From positions 1 through 58,139 of the forward strand of contig MQRK01170068.1 of assembly GCA_001938485.1 (NCBI GenBank): a stretch of DNA of 58,139 bases, written 5' to 3'. The notes under the pieces are model-generated. The model saw only the letters and a program-made list of their open reading frames with translations. It was not told where the DNA came from and did not search any database. The translations under genes were made by a program, and so were the position numbers. The stretch is from Girardia tigrina (taxonomy: Eukaryota). The stretch's first letter is position 1. Each line of letters opens with the position of its first letter. Positions 3,276 through 55,103 of this stretch are shown in pieces.

Positions 3276-4529
3276 TTATATTGGGGAAAAAAAATCCATT
3301 ATTTTGGCATGAAATTCAAAACTTTATTTAATATGTTTCAGATTGTCCTCTTGGAGTCAAATATTCACCGTTTTGTTGTATAATTAGTTGCCATTTTGAA
3401 GGTAGCTTCATAATGCCTCTCTCGTAAAAGTCTTGGTCCTTATTTGCGAAAAACTGTAGTAATCTATTTTCACAATCTTCTATTGATCCCAATTTCTTAT
3501 CACTCAGGAAATTTTGCAATGCTAGAAAAAGGAGGTAATCGCTTGGTGCCAGGTCCGGACTATATAGTGGATGCATTAAAACTTCCTAACCAAATTACCA
3601 CAGTTTCTGGCGAGTCACTACAGACGTATGTGGTCTGGCGTTGTCGTGATGGAACACAACACCTCTTCTGTTGGCCAACTCTGGTCGTTTCTCATCAATT
3701 GCTATCTTCAAACGGCCCAGTTGTTGACAGTACAGATCTGAATTTAGTGTTTGGCCATACGGAAGACACTCATAATAAATGATTCATTTCCAGTCCCACC
3801 AAATACACATTAGAACCTTCCTGGCCGTTAGTCCTGGTTTGGCGACCGTTTGAGGTGCTTCATCGTGCTTTGACCACGATCGTTTTTGTACAATATTGTC
3901 GTCTGTAACGAAATTCTCATCTCCAGTAACCATTCGTTTAAGAAATTGGTCGATTTCATTTCGTTTGGCCAAGGCTTCACAGATGGAAATTCGATCCATT
4001 ATGTTTTTTGGTGTTAATTGGTGTGGAACCCAAACATCAAGTTTCTTTTAGGAATCCTGCTTTGCCCAAATGGTTTAAAACCGTTTTGTGGTCGATCTTC
4101 AGCTCCTGTGCGATGCTACGATTACTGACATGCCGGCCAAATTCGATCATTGTCGTGATTTTATCGACATTTTCAACGATAGGCCTGCCTGTGCGAGGTG
4201 CATCTTTAACATCAAAAATGCCTCCACGGAATCGACGAAACCAAAATTGCGTGTAATTAGCTGTTACAGTATTGGCACCATAAACACCATTCACAATAAC
4301 AGCCGCCTGGCTTGCATCTTCGCCTTTATCGAATAAAAACTGTAAAATGTACCGAATTTTTAATTTGTTGACTTCATTTATTACACTCTGTAACTCAGAA
4401 CTGAATAAAAAAGCAAAACTTTTTTGTGAAATTACTGTGAAATGTTACCTTGACAAAGAGCATAAATTTGAAATTATTTGATCGATAAATAATGAATTAA
4501 AATAATGGATTACTTTTTCCCCAACCTAA
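3276..4529 (-). mobile_element. Full-length mariner (DD34D) transposon with frameshifted transposase (~4377 to 3328)
   Basis: Imperfect ~30-bp TIRs (TTGGGGAAAAA.AATCCATTATTTT), TA flanks, ~1.25 kb. Motifs FWFRRFR, PRTGRP, MVTGDE, KPGLTARKVLMCIWWDWK, YSPDLAPSDY. Confidence 0.95.
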
Positions 4530-5028: not shown

Positions 5029-7375
5029 CAATTATTGTGTCGATTCGGGTCATGTATTCGTTCTATACATAAATAAATTTTATATTCCAGTCGTGTCTTA
5101 TTTCTTCCCGTTCCAACGACGGAAGTTGGTGGTGCAAATTGCACTCGCCAAATTGGTGTCAGAAAGAAGAAGGACGGAACCTTGCGAATATGTGGTGACT
5201 ACAGAGGACTCAACAAGGTGACCATTCCAGACTCGTACCCAATGCCGCTCATCACCGACCTTCTTCAGCGCTTCGCAGGATGTACCGTCTTCTCATCTCT
5301 TGATTTGAGCAAAGCGTACCATCAGATCCAAATGGACACAAACTCAATTCAGAAGACGGCAGTCACAACACCATTCGGCTTATACGAATATGTGCGCATG
5401 CCCTTCGGGTTACGAAACGCCTCACAAACGTTCCAGCGGCACATTGACACGGTACTCAACGGACTCCCGAATGTAGCCGCGTACGTCGACGACATCATCA
5501 TCGCGTCGCCAAATTACGAGCAACACAAAACACATATCACCGCGACACTTGCAAGATTGAGCCAACACAACCTACAGATAAAGCTGCAGAAATGTCACTT
5601 TTTCCGACAACAAGTTGAATTCCTGGATCACTTATTATCCGATAAAGGCGTATTACCACTGGAGAGCCGTGTCAAAGCTATAAGAGATTTCCCCCGACCT
5701 GTAACAGTCACAGCACTGAGAAGCTTCTTGGGGATGATCAATTTCTGTAGACGGTTCATACCGCACATTTCCGACATACTTGCACCCCTTACGGTTCTTA
5801 CTTTCGGACCAAAACGCTCAAAAATCACCTGGACAACCGAGTCAGAACAGGCGTTTTGTCGAGCCAAAGACGCCTTACAAAAAATCAAATCCTTGCATTT
5901 CCCGGACTACAACTTACCACTCACATTGACAACGGACGCCTCCAACACGGCTCTAGGCGCAGTCTTGATGCAGGTCCGCAACACACATTCCGAACCCATA
6001 GAATTCTTTTCTCACAAACTGTCACCGGCTCAGACAAGATATTCCACCTTCGATCGGGAACTGTTAGGCCTTTNNNNNNNNNNNNNNNNNNNNNNNNNNN
6101 NNNNNATCGTCAAACCAGCAGTCGTCTACACGGACCACAAACCGCTCCTGCATTATCTGACCATGAAACATCCTTCCCCGCGGCAACAACATCACATGAG
6201 TTATCTGTCACAATTTAACATCGAATTACGCTATGTCAGAGGAGCCGAAAACGTTGTCGCAGACTGTTTGTCCCGCGCAGACATAGCAAGTCTTGATTTT
6301 GAACCCTTCCTCACCACTGAGACCCTAGCACAACACCCACCCACCTAAAAAGATCTCAGTTCTTTCTCCAATCCACCAGTCTCCAAAGGGAACAAATTCT
6401 TTGACACTTCTCTCGCTGGATCCATCCGACCGATACTTGGACAAGAGCTACGCGCACAAGCTTTCCACGCTGTTCACAACATCGCTCACCCCGGCAGGAA
6501 AGCAACCTATGAGTTGTTACGAACTAAAGTCATTTGGCCACATATGCGAAAGGACGTCACACTATGGTGTCGGGCTTGCTTCGACCGTCAACGGGGCAAA
6601 GTCACCCGGCACACGAAACCACCGACCACAGCCTTTCCTACTGGTAGCAGGTTCGACACAATTCATATAGACTTTGTCGGTCCGCTTTCCACGTCAAAAG
6701 GATTTTCTTACTTGTTCACAATAATTGACAGAAACACGCGCTGGCCCGAAGCGTTCCCTCTCAGAACAACCGCCACCGAGACCATAGCAGACATACTGGT
6801 GAACCACTGGATATCCAGATTTGGCATTCCAAAGCGGATCATTACCGATCAGGGTCAGCAATTCGAATCCGCACTTTTCACGGATTTAACCAAAAGACTG
6901 GGTATCCAAAAGGTGAGGACAACTGCCTACCACCCCCAAACCAACGGTCTCGCGGAATGCTTCCACAGGACACTAAAAAAACTCGTTCAGAGCGGGACAA
7001 TCCACAGCTTGGGCAGACTAATTACCTTTCGTACTTCTTGCTTGACGTAACATCCCCGACGGCAAACACGGGACATCGCCAGCACAACTGCTTTTCGGGT
7101 CAAACGCTTCCTTTGTAAACGAACTGTTCTTCAACGAAGCCCCTCGGAACAATAGCCAACTGGAGGCAGCTCGGACGCTCTTCATCACACATACACACCC
7201 CCCACAACATCCTCAAACGTTAAACCAGGCCAACGGAATCAATCCATACCAACACAGCCAACGAGAACCACACTACCCAAATCCAGACGTCGTCCAGCAC
7301 GCTACGGAGAACAAACCCAAACACTTAAATATGGCACATAACACTGCAAAATCATCATCTGTACTATACCACATT

Positions 7376-8989: not shown

Positions 8990-10584
8990 CAGTGAAGGAC
9001 AAAAGTATTTGCTCAGATGTATTTTTAACATATTTATGAAATATAAAATCACAAAAACCTAAAAATAAATATATTCTTAATTCTCGTTCTCGTCTACATG
9101 TATTTCATATGCTTAATTTTAATTTTGGTTAATTTTTATTTATTAAACAAGAAAAATTCGAAAAGTCGATGGACAAAAGTATTTGCTCAGAACGATTTAT
9201 TTATTTAAAAGACATAAAAAACACTTTAAAAATTTGTCCATAAGCATTTGTTTTTAACTAATTGGTCCATTCTACGTGGCATGGACTCAATAAGCGAATT
9301 ACAATACCCTTTAGTTATTTTTTTCCAGCATGTTTTAATACCTTCAATTAAATCTGATTTTTTTTATTTCCTCTGATTTAATCAAGGTTTTAAGCTTGAA
9401 CCAAAGGTTTTCAATTGGGTTTAGATCCGGACTTTGGCTTGGTCAGTCTAAAACTACAATATTTTTTCTGGTGAGATACTCTTTCCCCTTCTTAGCTGTG
9501 TGCTTTGGATCATTATCATGCTGGAATATGTAATCATCTTTAAATAAACGAGCTGATGATGGAATCATGTGCTGAGAAAGCATTCTGATATACATATTGG
9601 CATTCATTATACCTTCGATTATATGTATATCACCAACACCAGCTTAACTGAAACATCCCCAAGCCATAACAGAGTCATCATGCTTGACTGTTTGCTTCAC
9701 ATGTTTTGGTTTAAGAATTTCTCCAGGTCTTCTCAAAGTCTAGACCTTTCCATCACTGCCTCTTCTATTTAATTTTGTTTCGTCTGAGAACAAAACACGT
9801 TTCCAATCTTCAACTGTACAACTTTGGTGCTTTAAACCAAATTGGTGCCTTGCTTTAATATGCTTTTTGGTCAAGAGCGGCATTTTCAGTGGTGCTCTGC
9901 CATGTAAACCTGCTTCATGCAGTCTTCTTTGAACAGTTTTTGCACTCACATGTGCAATATTTGTTTTCTTTAGGTTTTCAGCAACGTCTACAGCATTTGG
10001 TTGATTTGATTTTTCAATTAAATCAACTATTTTCTTGTCTATCTTTGCTGTAGTCGCCCTGGGTATACCTGTTCTAGGCTTGTTCTGATAAGTTCCAGCC
10101 ATTTAAAACCGTTTTAAGGTATAATTGACAGTGAAAAATGGAACATTCAGCTTCTTTTCAATTTCCAGACTTGAATAACCTTCGTCTTTAAGAGTTTTTA
10201 TTGAAACTCTATGAGTAAAGTTAATTTTCCGGGTTTTCGTCATTAAGGCTCTTGGAATAAAATTTTATATAATATAATATTAAAAAACCAACTTGACTTT
10301 CAAATAATAATTTTATTGATTGATTCTACGATTTTTTCTATTAAAATTATAACTTTAATTTTTAAAAAAGTCGAATATTAATTCTGAGCAAATACTTTTG
10401 TCCATCGACTTTTCGAATTTTTCTTGTTTAATAAATAAAAATTAACCAAAATTAAAATTAAGCATATCAAATACATGTAGACGAGAACGAGAATTAAAAA
10501 TATATTTATTTTTATGTTTTTGTGATTTTATATTTCATGAATATGTTAAAAATACATCTGAGCAAATACTTTTGTCCTTCACTG
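8990..10584 (-). mobile_element. Tc1-family (DD34E) transposon with ~200-bp IR-DR terminal repeats; transposase 10243 to 9226, disrupted
   Basis: TA-CAGTGAAGGACAAAAGTATTTGCTCAGA at both ends. GGACAAAAGTATTTGCTCAGA occurs twice within each TIR. Motifs TVQRRLHEAGL, VLFSDETK, FQHDNDPKH, QSPDLNPIEN. Premature TAA at 10103-10105. Confidence 0.95.
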
Positions 10585-23564: not shown

Positions 23565-25061
23565 TTAATTGTTTATATTGTTTACATTGTTTATTGCACT
23601 GTTTTGTATCCTTGATTAAAATGGGTAACGATTCTGAACAAAAACAAAAGAAACAACGAAGATCTTTTAGTTCAGCAAAGAAAAAATAAGTTATTGAATA
23701 AGCTAGTTAGGAAACATACGGGAAGCTGCAAGACGATATGATATTGATGAAATTTTATTCGAAGATGGATCGCCCAAGAGTCTGTTATCAAAGCAATGAA
23801 TCCAAATCGAAGATCTTTGCTTGGTGGTAACGCTAGATATCCGGAATTAGAAACGAAATTACACGAATGGATCCTAATTCAACTTGAACGAGAACTTTAA
23901 GTGTCGCTTTTTCGAATTCGTTTACAGAATCAAGTAATTGCCAAAGAGATGAAGATTTAAGTTTTTTTGTCGCGAGCTCTCAATGGACTGATAATTTTAT
24001 GAAACACAAAAATATTTGTGTTCGACGGCCTACCACAAAGCAATAATTGCCGAAACATTGGGAATTTAAGATGGTCAAGTGTAGAAGCACCATCTCAGAT
24101 TTAAAGAATGATTTGCCAGATAATCAAATTGGTAATTTTGATCAAGTGTCCGTTCAATATTACATGCATTTTGGGTACACAATTAAGACTAAAGGTGCCA
24201 GTGAGGTCCGCATTAAAACTACAGGATATGAGAAAAACGTTTCACTGTCAGCTATGTGTTCTCAAAGATGGTACGGAATTTCTGCATTTTGTTATTTTTG
24301 GCACAAAGAAACTTCCAAAGACTTGCATTCCTGAATCAAAGTTTGTTATTGCAGCTAATGGATCTGGTTGGATGAATCATGAAACTTTTAAGACATGGCT
24401 CAAGAAAGTATGGAAGAGACGAATTACATTGCCTCCAAAGACACCATGGAACGAGGATCAAAAAGTAACATCATTGCTTTTATTTGATATGTGTCGCTCA
24501 CATCTTGTCACTACTACACTTGCTGAAATTAAGAAGGAATCCAAAATAGCTTTCATATCTACCGGATTGACATCAATTGTGCAGCCATTAGATCTTATTG
24601 TTAAACGTTCGTTCAAGTCTAAATTGCGCAAGAATTGGGAGGATTGGATCATTAAAGATTGTGAGAATATCAAGCATACTAAATCCGGAAATATGAAAGA
24701 AGCTGACTGGAATACCATTTGCTAATGGATTGTCTATTCTTGGGAAGAGGTTAACCTTTCCACCATTTTGAATGGTTTTCGTGTTTCATTCGGTGAAGAC
24801 GACGATGTTCTTGAAATTGAAGAAATTGAAATGAATGTGAATGAATGAATGTGATCAAAACATTGCAGTTTTTCATGACCTTGTAGAATTACTAGAAAAT
24901 TTCACTTGTGATATTTTTAGGAGTGTGATGTTGAAAATTGAAATAAATAAATAATCGTATCTTCAATTTGAATTGTTTTTGAAATTGTAAAAGCTGCACG
25001 TCATATTATCTGTAATTCAAAAATGTTGCCTTAATGTTCGTTTTAGCTGCAAATTTTACAG
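23565..25061 (+). mobile_element. pogo family B transposon (CENP-B HTH plus DDE_1), decayed, left end missing
   Basis: GNFDQVSV, IKTTGYEK, NGSGWMN, LLLFDMCRSH, TGLTSIVQPLDL. Right end AATTTTACAG-TA. Confidence 0.9.
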
Positions 25062-41579: not shown

Positions 41580-42181
41580 GAGATCTTGGAGTAAAAAAGA
41601 TCAACCTGCTCAAAGCACTTCCAAAGCTGACATCAAAAAAGGTGATGCTATCTGTTTGGTGGGATTTCAAAGGAATCGTATTTTATTAGCTTCTTCCGGA
41701 CAAAACTACGATCAATGCGGCCGTCTACTGTCATCAGCTGGACAAATTAAATGAATCCCTTAAACACAAAAGGCCAGAATTGATCAATAAAAAAGGTGTA
41801 GTGTTTCACCAAGATAATGCCAGACCTCATACAAGTTTGGTAACTCGCCAAAAGCTTTTACAGCTTGGATGGAACATCATGCCTCGCCCACCATATTCTC
41901 CAGGCCTTGCACCTTCTGATTATCATTTGTTCCCGTCTCTACAAAATTATTTAGATGGTAACTGTTTTGGATCAAATGAAGATGTTAAAAATCACCTGGA
42001 AAAGTTTTTTAGCAGCAAAGAACAAATATTTTATGAACGTGGAATCATGTCACTGCCAGGAAGATGGAAGAAGGATTGGACCACAATGGTCAATATGTAT
42101 TTCAATAAAATATTTATTCGTCATAAAAATTTGTCTTTTACTTTAATACAAAAAAACGAAATGACTTTCTGAACAACCCAA
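41580..42181 (+). mobile_element. mariner 3' half (mellifera-subfamily-like)
   Basis: KKVMLSVWWDFKG, VFHQDNARPHTS, PPYSPGLAPSDYHLF; right TIR ending ACAACCCAA-TA. Confidence 0.9.
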
Positions 42182-43661: not shown

Positions 43662-45541
43662 CAGTAACTTTTTGAGATAATTTAATTTTTTTAATAATAA
43701 GCGTCTACTGACTGTTTCATTAGAAAACGCGGGAAATTTTCGAGATAATGAATTTTTTGATAATGAATGGGCAAAATTCTTAAAATTAGAAATTACTTTA
43801 GTAATTTTTAAATATTCAATGATCATAAAGTAAATATTTATATATTAAATTGCATTTATATTATTTATTTTATTTTAATAATGTAAAATTTTGAACATTT
43901 TTTAAAAATTTTGATTTTTTTAAGTTTAAATTTTTTTTTACTTTTTTGCATTTAAATTATTTTAGATCAATAAAGGCACATGATAATTAACAGAAAACCA
44001 AAAAGAAGAAGATATTCAATTGCAAAAAAAACTGGTCGTTGCAAATTTTAAACTGGAAAATAAATTTGTAACACAGGCATCTCTTGTCAATAAATTTAAG
44101 ATGCCAGCTGGAACGGTAAACAAAATTCTTAACAACTTGGAGAAGTATAAATCAGAATATGAAAAGGAAATAGCAGACAAGAAAAGTATTGTTTCAAATA
44201 TAAAGACACACGAAATATATCCGCATCTCTACGATTGAATATCAAGGAAGAGAAAGTTGAACAACACAATAACAAACTTAATGTTTGAGTAGATGGCATT
44301 AAAAATTGCCAAAAATTGGAAATGGAAAACTTTTAAGCTTCCAGCACATGAATATCGCAATTTAAAAAATCATTTGGAATAAAAACACAATATATTTTTG
44401 GTGAAGAAGGTTTTGTAAACCCTTTGGTTTTATGTGAATCATGGGCGGAATTCGAAAAAGTTTATAATAAATATGCTAATCGTGGCGTATTTAATTGTGA
44501 CGAAACAGAGTTGTTCTTTAAGTGTCCTCCAAAAAAGGCACTTATTTTAAGACACTAAGAAAAGGCTAGTGGAAAATTCTCTAAAGAAAGAGTAACACTT
44601 CTTTATTGCTAAATTAAAACGAATGAAAAAGTGCCCCGCTCTTAATAGGGAAATTTAAATCTCCCAGAGGATTTAAAAACCTCTAGTTTTTTAAGATATG
44701 CTTAAAATACGAGAATAACAAAACTTCTTGGATGACCTGTAAAATTTTTGGCCGGTGTTTACATGATCTTAATGAAAAATTGAAAAAAAATCGAAAAATT
44801 TTACTATTGCTACACAATACTGATAAGTTTTTCAGTAATATAGAGCTTTATTATCTTCCCATAAACAGTACTTTCAAGATACAGCCCCTAGATCAAGGAA
44901 TTATCAAAGCACATTACACAAAACATTTTACGAGAAATTTAACTATAGAAAATGAAAATGACACCATAACATATGAGGAAGCAATTAAAAGAACTCGTTT
45001 AGTAGATGTCCTTCCGCTCATATTAAATGCTTGGAGCTCAGTTAGCAAAACAATTATAGCAAACAGTTTTAGACATGGATTTATTAATTAGAGAGGATAT
45101 TCTAAAGATACAGTTCATGTAAATGAAGTTATTAATACCGCTTCATCAGATACTAACATAGATGTTTCTGAAATATTTGAATACAATGACTTTCCAATAT
45201 GTGCAGATTCCGATATTAATAACGCAGCTTTTATCGAACGGGTTGAATCTCTAAATAAATTTGTTGAACATGAAGAAACATTAGAACAAGATGAACCAGA
45301 GATCGGATATACAGATGCTGTGTGTTGTTTAAAAAATTTGGAAAGGTACTTTCTTGTGTATAATAACACTGCCATCAAAACCTTGGATGATCTTAGAAAT
45401 CAATTACTAGATAGCAAAAAAAAGGACTTTAAAAATAACGGATTTTTTTTAAAAATGAATAAATGTTGAAATCTTCATTATCTCTTTTTAATTAGCGGGA
45501 ATTTTTTAGGTCATCGTGGTTCTCATTATTTCAAAAAGTTA

Positions 45542-53265: not shown

Positions 53266-53966
53266 TGGTGCTGAATTAATTAAAATTAAGTTTATTTAAA
53301 CAGAAAGAGTAAAACTATACTTCTAATATTCTAAAAGTGACAAAAACATATAGTATTAATTTTCGAACATTACTTGTTCCCACTTTCCGTTAATGTGTTA
53401 ATAAAATTTACATTGTACTTTTCAATTAAATGTATCAAATGTAAATCCTTGTTAAATATCTGAATGAAAAATAATTCGTAATTTAAACATTATGAAAGTA
53501 GTTTACTTGAAATGGTTGTTATGAAGCTTATGATTATAAAATTTACTAAATATTATTTTTGTATAAATCATTATTTAAATATTTTGAGAGTTGTTTGAAC
53601 ATTAATTTTTGGATTAAGTTACTTAATTATTGACGCTTTTTACTTTAATTTCAAAATAATTTTCAACCTTTGAATTCAGAGCTTTAAATTTTTACATGTT
53701 ACTTCTACCATAAATTTGTCTGTGTTCTAGAATTCATTTGATGCTTTTCTTACATGTTTGGTATTACACCTATTAGACATTATTTCTAATACATAATGTA
53801 TAAATAGACTCAAAAAAGTAAGTGAATAATTATTATGAAACATATTCTCAAGTTTAGTATTAAACTTTTTATCCGACTGAAATATAATTTTAATCAGTCA
53901 ATAGTCCCAAATTATAGTTATCGTGATATATATATATTAGTTTTGTGAACGCTAATTTGATATTAT

Positions 53967-54398
53967 GTAGTCAATGGCCTCAGTTAGGTACGTCGGATCT
54001 CGTCCGATCTCCGAGGTTTAGCAACCAAAGGCTGCGTTAGTACTTATTTGGGTGACCAATAGGGAAATTGTGGGGCCATTGACTACACTACAGGACAGGC
54101 AATCTGTCTGCTACAGGTACCATGTAAACCTGTAATACCTGTCCCATGGTCGAATAGTTGGCGACTAAACCGGCCGCATCACTTAGAGTAACCTGCGTGA
54201 AGAGGTGTGTGGACACCTAGAAGGATGAAAAACAAAACCTAGCAAAGGGCGGATGAGCTCCTTGGAGCCAACGGCCATCCATACCTGGAGAGGAGATGGG
54301 CGCCACCAGGTTCCTTGCCTACTGAGACACTCAAATATATATGCAAACCCACGCATAATTGAGTGCACCCACAGTCCAAAGGCTACAGTACCAAAAAA
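53967..54398 (+). mobile_element. Full-length 5S rRNA-derived SINE (SINE3 type)
   Basis: Head contains GATCTCGTCCGATCTCCGAGGTTTAGC...GTTAGTACTT...TGGGTGACC...GGGAA (5S loop C, A-box, loop E, C-box-like). A8 tail. 13-bp TSD AATTTGATATTAT at 53954-53966 and 54399-54411. Confidence 0.9.
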
Positions 54399-55103
54399 AA
54401 TTTGATATTATTTTGAAATAATTTTGTTAAAGTTTTTGATGTTTTATTAATCATAATTAACCTTTATAATTTGTCAAGAAAAAGTTATTTTGAATGTTAA
54501 AGAAAAATTGTTGATATGTTTGAAGTTTTCCCTCGATACCCCATGTAAATTTGAACTTATATGAAGAGTTTATATAACTCAAAAAATATTTCTGTCAAAA
54601 ATTTGTATTTTTAAACAAATTATCGAGGAACATTTTTTCATTACATAAACACAAATAAATATTACTTTGATATAAAAACGACTATTTTAAATTTTGTAAT
54701 TTAAATTTCCATTATAAATTTCCTAAAGTACATTTAGAAATTAAAATTTTATATTCGATATTCTTTTGCAAATACCTTTACCAATTTACTTTTTTATATT
54801 TTACAATTCCAAAATTACATTTTCAGAACTTTATTTTTTAAATTACATTTTAAATTTCCCATTTACATTCTAAATATTTACATTCTAAGTTTTCTTAAAT
54901 TTCATTTAATAGTTGATGTTGTATATTGTGAAAATATGATTTTGTTTTCTTACTTCCTAATGTTTACATTTTACATTTTCTCAAAAAATCTTTTCGTTTC
55001 ACAAGTTTTTATTATAATATTCAAAAATTTGTGTCAATTCCAAAATACTAACAGTGGTAAAACTAAAAAAGTTTATAATTTATAAAGATTTAAACCCCCT
55101 TAC

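Follow-up and report, generated by a model that had tools for sequence, protein, structure and literature searches.

Organization of the element

The window analysed here, a 58,139-nt stretch of Girardia tigrina DNA (contig MQRK01170068.1), contains a unit of about 430 nt at positions 53967-54398 that is flanked by a 13-bp target-site duplication (TSD) (Table 1). The 120-nt stretch singled out in the preliminary description of this DNA is the head of that unit. An Rfam scan of the window returned 5S rRNA as the sole gathering-level match, with a 4-nt gap after position 10, and the head length of 120 nt corresponds to a 119-nt gene with +3, -4 and +2 changes. The labels and limits of box A, IE and box C within the head of 53967-54398 are those we take to apply. 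A tRNA scan gave 0 matches, and no ORF of at least 120 aa overlapping the SINE was found in the window. TSD lengths in the family vary from 9 to 13 bp, and the SINE is a single unit with an A tail and without long terminal repeats. Judged by these sequence features, the element is very probably a 5S-headed (SINE3-class) non-autonomous retroposon, a decaying copy of a dispersed family.

Table 1. Features of the 5S-headed element and its flanks (positions in the window)
Feature	Position	Strand	Basis
Left target-site duplication (13 bp)	53954-53966	+	Exact 13-bp repeat located by script
GTA, 3-nt 5' extension absent in host 5S; likely Pol III start	53967-53969	+	45 of 72 young copies carry G at -3; where young copies have a TSD (17), its edge is at -3 in 8
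5S rRNA-derived head, host 5S nt 1-119 minus nt 11-14 (loop A)	53970-54084	+	Rfam RF00001, 57.5 bits; read against the host gene L031
Internal control region, 5S nt 50-97 (box A, IE, box C); putative type 1 Pol III promoter	54015-54062	+	3 substitutions, young consensus vs host 5S
5' arm of the terminal helix, 13 bp in the family: C10-G109, nine inherited pairs and three new ones	53967-53979	+	Predicted pairing
3' arm of 13-bp terminal helix; last two bases stand in for the 5S oligo-T terminator	54074-54086	+	T run after host genes, not after SINE copies; no T4 run in consensus
Body, derived from the start of an APE-RT (RTE-like) LINE	54091-54347	+	259 columns aligned with the LINE 5' ends L246, L254 and L257 at 83-85% identity
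Tail, derived from the very 3' terminus of that LINE	54355-54392	+	80-87% identity over 31-46 columns; both ends in one 3.3-kb LINE copy
Short A tail	54393-54398	+	Sequence
Right target-site duplication	54399-54411	+	Exact 13-bp repeat

Elsewhere in the window, frames of an LTR retrotransposon lie at 5077-7050 (plus strand; reverse transcriptase and integrase-like by their motifs). Fragments that are transposase-like, again by motifs, lie at 4037-4444, 9740-10102, 24105-24725, 41690-42172 and 44687-45469, several of them within inverted or direct repeats. Positions 1-126 hold a tandem repeat of five copies of a 21-nt unit.

Copy number and subfamilies

Searching the genome (1.43 Gb) with 53960-54400 gave 3556 first-look candidates, and the 40 that were scored were 87-100% identical, nearly all across almost their full length. 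Exact motifs from the head, body and tail matched 470 (control 67), 832 (control 0) and 1314 (control 0) places genome-wide, respectively. Thousands of candidate copies are dispersed, many with TSDs; a TSD of at least 9 bp was present in 17 of 60 young copies.

Loci from the genome, 5S-family and motif searches were pooled with 60 of 70 additional listed body-motif sites (5 were removed because they were duplicates or lay too close to a contig end, and 5 were left out) and 60 of 70 additional listed old-junction sites (2 duplicates removed, 8 left out). This set comprised 247 matches spanning the head/body junction, or 188 after merging those with shared flanks. An intact 5' end was found in 125 copies (72 young, 40 old and 13 unclassified). 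The two subfamilies differ in mean divergence, at 0.146 for old (n = 40) and 0.06 for late young copies (n = 61). Because the old set was chosen largely on its 3' arm, the conservation of that arm is artefactual; position -3 played no part in choosing these copies.

The partner LINE

Many matches to the tail motif are LINE 3' ends, in which an ORF (RVT_1) enters the shared segment and stops before a GAA tail. Body matches that lack a head start at one sharp base and continue into an endonuclease frame. In one of the five stretches examined (L379; G000:C184398:17600-21500, minus strand), the LINE 5' start and tail stand 3.3 kb apart. The SINE body covers the first ~255 nt of this LINE from its very first base, and the SINE tail matches its last ~40-45 nt (identities in Table 1). 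Body and tail are the two ends of one internally deleted RTE-like LINE. The LINE combines matches to an APE-type endonuclease and RVT_1, DUF6451/RVT_1 look-alikes, a length of 3.3 kb, a coding region near the 5' end and a GAA tail. These we take to be RTE hallmarks, and the LINE is called RTE-like on its features and look-alikes, not by a tree. An Rfam e-value search for a ribozyme in the LINE 5' end found none at three loci, and a PDB search with the LINE protein returned nothing meaningful.

Three further loci or pairs of loci were noted. One without a head (L215) joins the LINE 5' part to a longer LINE 3' part and is a candidate bipartite precursor of the SINE. Two others (L173 and L174) carry a different, GC-richer sequence upstream of the tail motif and end in the same LINE tail, possibly as another SINE family or another LINE. 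At L246, 2178-2367, a long AT-rich hairpin has a sub-threshold match to a microRNA model and is probably a MITE-like inverted repeat.

The plan of the SINE, a 5S head followed by a bipartite RTE-like LINE, places it in an ordinary class that is already known, as a further independent case that is ordinary in itself. The family is probably uncatalogued; it may already be listed, as Repbase lay outside the comparison. A literature search on 5S-derived SINEs found none mentioning planarians. Nor did the literature searched, which left subscription papers mostly outside, hold a report on compensatory RNA structure in 5S-derived SINEs or on a SINE3 terminal helix.

The head compared with the host 5S gene

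A 5S-family search of the genome gave 46 matches among 47 scored, and the best of these (up to 108 bits, followed by a T run) were taken as true 5S genes. The 9-bp core of the SINE terminal helix has exactly the sequence of helix I in the host 5S, and loop D (GUGA) is identical too. The preliminary description had read the departures of the head from typical animal 5S as compensatory change. Because the host's own gene already carries the same 9-bp helix I and loop D, these departures are the host's own. A genuine host 5S with the same sequence had been named there as the result that would speak against independent covariation, and for the 5S body this is what we found (identical helix I).

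Relative to the host 5S, the old consensus has 3 bases added at the 5' end, nt 11-14 deleted, a broken terminator and 4 substitutions (U16C, U96A, A103U and U109G), with U96A and A103U each in about half of copies. The young consensus adds G17A, A27G, C28U, C35U, U53C (in half), A83U and U102A, reaching 11 substitutions. Two-sided changes in helices I-V numbered 0 in the old and 0 in the young consensus. Helix II is broken by U16C and G17A (two pairs lost), while A27G and C28U leave wobbles. The first of these pairs, 16-62, is unpaired in 40 of 47 aligned rows and the second, 17-61, in 24 of 47. U109G pairs with C10, and the three-way junction of loop A is not intact. All 18 helix I positions are unchanged in both masters, for which a hand estimate gives ~16% by chance.

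The excerpted text of PMC10245719 places the internal control region of 5S at bp 50-94. Over nt 50-97, there is 1 substitution in the old consensus and there are 3 in the young one, so the promoter region is retained. In loop C only C35U has changed, a base also found in a second host 5S type.

As a positive control for two-sided change, the two 5S gene types in the same assembly were compared, and 9 two-sided changes were recovered over 25 differing sites. These types are represented by L031 (861-979, minus strand) and by L037 (120-238, minus strand), L039 and L041, with T runs after both in most loci; they are either two 5S classes in one genome or the mark of a second organism in the assembly. 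SINEs derived from the second type were sought and rejected (5 matches against 10 in the control; the 3 examined were not 5S).

Individual copies were then compared for changes in stems. In 27 young full-length heads (picked on the body motif), unpaired sites had changed at 0.061 and stems at 0.045-0.126. One-sided changes that keep pairing made up 41 of 134 in these heads, with 39.1 expected from the mutation spectrum. The corresponding values were 98 of 297 (97.8 expected) for all 72 young copies and 94 of 339 (90.4 expected) for the old ones. Stem-breaking substitutions in the 5S body thus occur at the neutral rate in copies, contrary to the suggestion that selection acts on the RNA structure of the head; random stem breaks of this kind were the second result named in the preliminary description as speaking against it. 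An alignment of 3 host genes with 44 of the 112 heads gave a pair count above all 500 shuffles on all five measures, a result to be read with the rows being related, the second 5S type included, the outermost pair contributing 14 of 42 two-sided cells and a +1 slide, run for comparison, itself giving 41 cells. Aligning family copies with the host 5S, as the preliminary description had proposed, did reveal one two-sided change, at the outermost pair, but none in helices I-V of the masters.

The copies decay neutrally, the 5S-like pairing of the head is inherited and eroding, and maintenance of the 5S fold by compensatory change is not supported.

Predicted fold of the 53967-54086 copy

In this copy, 53967-53982 pairs with 54071-54086 to form the claimed 16-bp closing helix with one G-U, and the claimed helix IV with its GUGA loop and the TCGGA/TCCGA stem are both present. 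The 120-nt head folds at -46.4 kcal/mol (z -4.08), and 0 of 200 shuffles were equally stable. The idea of a rebuilt terminal helix holds insofar as the family helix is longer than 5S helix I (13 vs 9 bp), but the length of 16 bp is private to this copy. It results from two private changes, and both subfamily consensuses have 13 unbroken pairs. Among full-length heads, only three of the 72 young ones and one of the 40 old ones have an unbroken run of at least 15 pairs.

That the head keeps the 5S fold did not survive closer inspection. Predicted pairing of canonical helix II falls from 0.96-1.0 in the host 5S (one pair at 0.5) to 0.43 in the old consensus, 0.02 in the young consensus and at most 0.01 in this copy. 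Helix V is also lost here (at most 0.02 predicted) because the 16-bp helix takes its strand. Likewise, not all loop sequences are retained as described: loop A has lost nt 11-14, and loop E carries U102A and A103U. The predicted fold of the consensus still has helices I and IV, along with part of III and V. The terminal helix has a predicted probability of 0.09 in the full-length young consensus and 0.88 in the full length of this copy. Against its family, this copy shows one two-sided change (G15U/C64A), four one-sided private changes that still pair and one that breaks pairing. We read its private pairing-preserving changes as chance.

Coupled ends of the terminal helix

Old copies have ATA before the 5S start and TAT after the 5S part, and young copies have GTA and TAC. 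As its outermost pair, the terminal helix has A-U in the old subfamily and G-C in the young one. At position -3, young copies have G in 45 and A in 9 of 72, and old copies have A in 29 and G in 2 of 40; a Fisher test on these counts is pseudo-replicated. A hand count of the young body-motif subset gave G at -3 in 14 of 23. The switch from A-U to G-C between subfamilies is a single evolutionary event. The extension is exactly 3 nt, with no complement at -4. Among the 17 young copies with a TSD, its edge falls at -3 in 8, at -2 in 4, at -5 in 3 and elsewhere in 2. A 13-bp terminal helix with coupled ends is supported; the coupling does not by itself show that selection on an RNA function is the cause.

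An origin of the extension from the flanks of 5S genes was rejected, as the genes with the highest scores have T rather than A at -1.

Rearranged copies provided direct examples of templated 5' ends, the rearranged-head pattern being found at 3 places genome-wide. At L283/L348 the head interior is inverted, and seven 5' bases are complementary to the junction. The 5' flank of L349/L364 reproduces the sequence of the 3' arm and body but for a skip. L350 is a head-to-head fold-back. In L377, ~20 nt of 5' flank are complementary to the start of its own body, with a minority base in common. The excerpted text of PMC11371274 describes cDNA snap-back after full-length synthesis for R2, and these copies match snap-back of that type. 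By our own estimate, long fold-backs make up ~1% of full-length young copies.

Fold-back at each insertion was rejected as the routine source of the 3 nt, there being no complement at -4 and no CT excess: among 34 matches, the complementary CT stands at -5/-4 in 6 (2 of them long), compared with GT in 7, CA in 10 and GA in 11. A search for an old-type long fold-back pattern gave 1 match, a normal copy on the other strand. Scanning the flanks of the 125 copies revealed nothing above control except L002 and L009, which were marginal. At the 5' junctions of L002, L009, L182, L219 and L226, the first 9-15 nt of the element recur as direct or inverted repeats, suggestive of template jumps.

Origin of the element and of its paired ends

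The comparisons show that the element arose by joining the host's 5S to an RTE-like LINE reduced to its two ends (5' ~255 nt and 3' ~45 nt), with loss of the oligo-T terminator. The head would work as a DNA promoter, with TFIIIA/TFIIIC on the internal control region; Pol III would read through into the LINE-derived part, and the LINE protein would copy the SINE RNA from the shared tail. In a search for expression, none of 17 listed sequencing runs contained half of the sampled words; the four compared with the element supplied assembled contigs (three presumed to be RNA, one a leaf-litter metatranscriptome with 42 contigs compared), which carry no information on strand, start or level. The excerpted text of PMC10245719 gives a TFIIIC ruler model of start choice. 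The distance from the 5' end to box A is 50 nt in 5S and 49 nt in the SINE. The 4-nt deletion in loop A may have moved the start 3 nt upstream, with 3 added bases offsetting 4 deleted ones as for a start set by the promoter.

The end of a finished cDNA would sometimes fold back on its own copy of the 3' arm and be extended, rewriting the 5' end. If such a copy were transcribed from -3, it would found a master with a corrected 5' end. Rare fold-back copies whose 5' end comes from the 3' arm imply that the match can arise without selection on RNA function. We tentatively favour fold-back synthesis as the most likely source of the three-base match. It is also conceivable, and again put forward tentatively, that the 5' end is self-correcting as a whole: fold-back by the LINE enzyme would rewrite the first bases and the Pol III ruler would trim them to three extra, such that the ends co-vary like a selected helix, with or without selection for a paired 5' end. 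If true, this would be evidence, from a natural genome, that SINE masters are shaped by snap-back at their 5' junction. It would also caution against reading covariation at the ends of a retroposon head as a sure sign of RNA function.

Selection of the terminal helix at the RNA level, independent of any 5S protein, is a somewhat doubtful alternative. A flush-paired 5' end could yield stabler transcripts or more full-length insertions, and, in the excerpted text of PMC11331408, a stable 5' structure raises the insertion efficiency of R2 templates. The subfamily switch at the outermost pair, the addition of exactly 3 nt without a complement at -4 and the unchanged helix I arms of both masters are consistent with this. 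However, the switch is one event only (by a hand estimate, ~3% by chance with ~8 other changes in the head), rearranged copies give direct examples of templated copying, and the terminal helix is predicted to be weak in the full-length young consensus. Fold-back repair and selection for a paired 5' end are not mutually exclusive. The coupled ends, over which templated repair and selection compete, are the sole point that might draw SINE specialists.

That the 3-bp extension and its switch are coincidence is unlikely. The AT-rich flanks (A 0.37, T 0.40) give the first match a chance of ~5%, a G-U intermediate would be harmless, and ATA lies inside the TSD in 3 of 5 old copies that have one, which blurs the boundary. 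Nevertheless, two separate coincidences are required, with a joint chance well below 1% (a hand estimate, made post hoc).

Very improbable is 5S mimicry, in which the SINE RNA would bind TFIIIA or uL18/L5 and reach ribosomes making the LINE protein, like Alu with SRP9/14: loop C is nearly intact and several helices persist in the consensus, yet loop A is deleted in both subfamily consensuses, helix II is progressively broken, loop E is altered, the masters lack two-sided changes, the LINE-specific tail offers a direct route to the LINE protein, and helices III-V largely overlap the promoter, which suffices for their retention. In the excerpted text of PMC3257258, loop A is the high-affinity TFIIIA site and loop C the main L5 site; mimicry towards TFIIIA is unlikely because loop A is deleted. 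TFIIIA and Rpf2 also read loop E, according to the excerpted text of PMC4511217. The case is a clean test of the idea that a SINE head mimics its parent RNA, and the idea fails here against the host gene.

Comparison with known systems

The Alu head derives from a housekeeping Pol III RNA, and its protein-binding fold (SRP9-14) is kept. The head described here has the same kind of source. Unlike Alu, it is without the junction loop, and a LINE-specific tail is present. The SINE3 class is said to go back to Kapitonov and Jurka in 2003. As in that class, a 5S internal promoter would drive a LINE-dependent element. The excerpted text of PMC10886601 reports that SINE3 conservation is highest in the promoter, with more divergence upstream, whereas in this head the nine 5'-most bases of the 5S part are still those of 5S and still paired.

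Cassandra and Ajax are 5S-bearing TRIMs that captured 5S as a promoter and whose predicted RNA fold differs from that of 5S (excerpted texts of PMC10886601, PMC12486564 and PMC10853983). The Girardia tigrina SINE resembles them in its putative use of captured 5S sequence as a promoter and in a predicted fold differing from 5S. It lacks their LTRs and instead ends in a LINE tail and an A tail, with TSDs of variable length.

The closest parallels are HaSE3 (Helicoverpa), CoeSINE5 (coelacanth), SINE-1_Pmo and Ped-1, which combine a 5S head with the ends of an RTE LINE (excerpted texts of PMC5786205 and PMC3272025). All share with our element a 5S-derived head and a body and tail supplied by the two ends of one LINE, of RTE type in those families and RTE-like here, a likeness drawn from descriptions, not sequence. 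Unlike those families, the Girardia tigrina SINE has an independent origin from its own host's 5S, its body begins at the first base of the LINE and spans ~255 nt, and both arms of helix I are kept and extended by 3 pairs, with loop A deleted.
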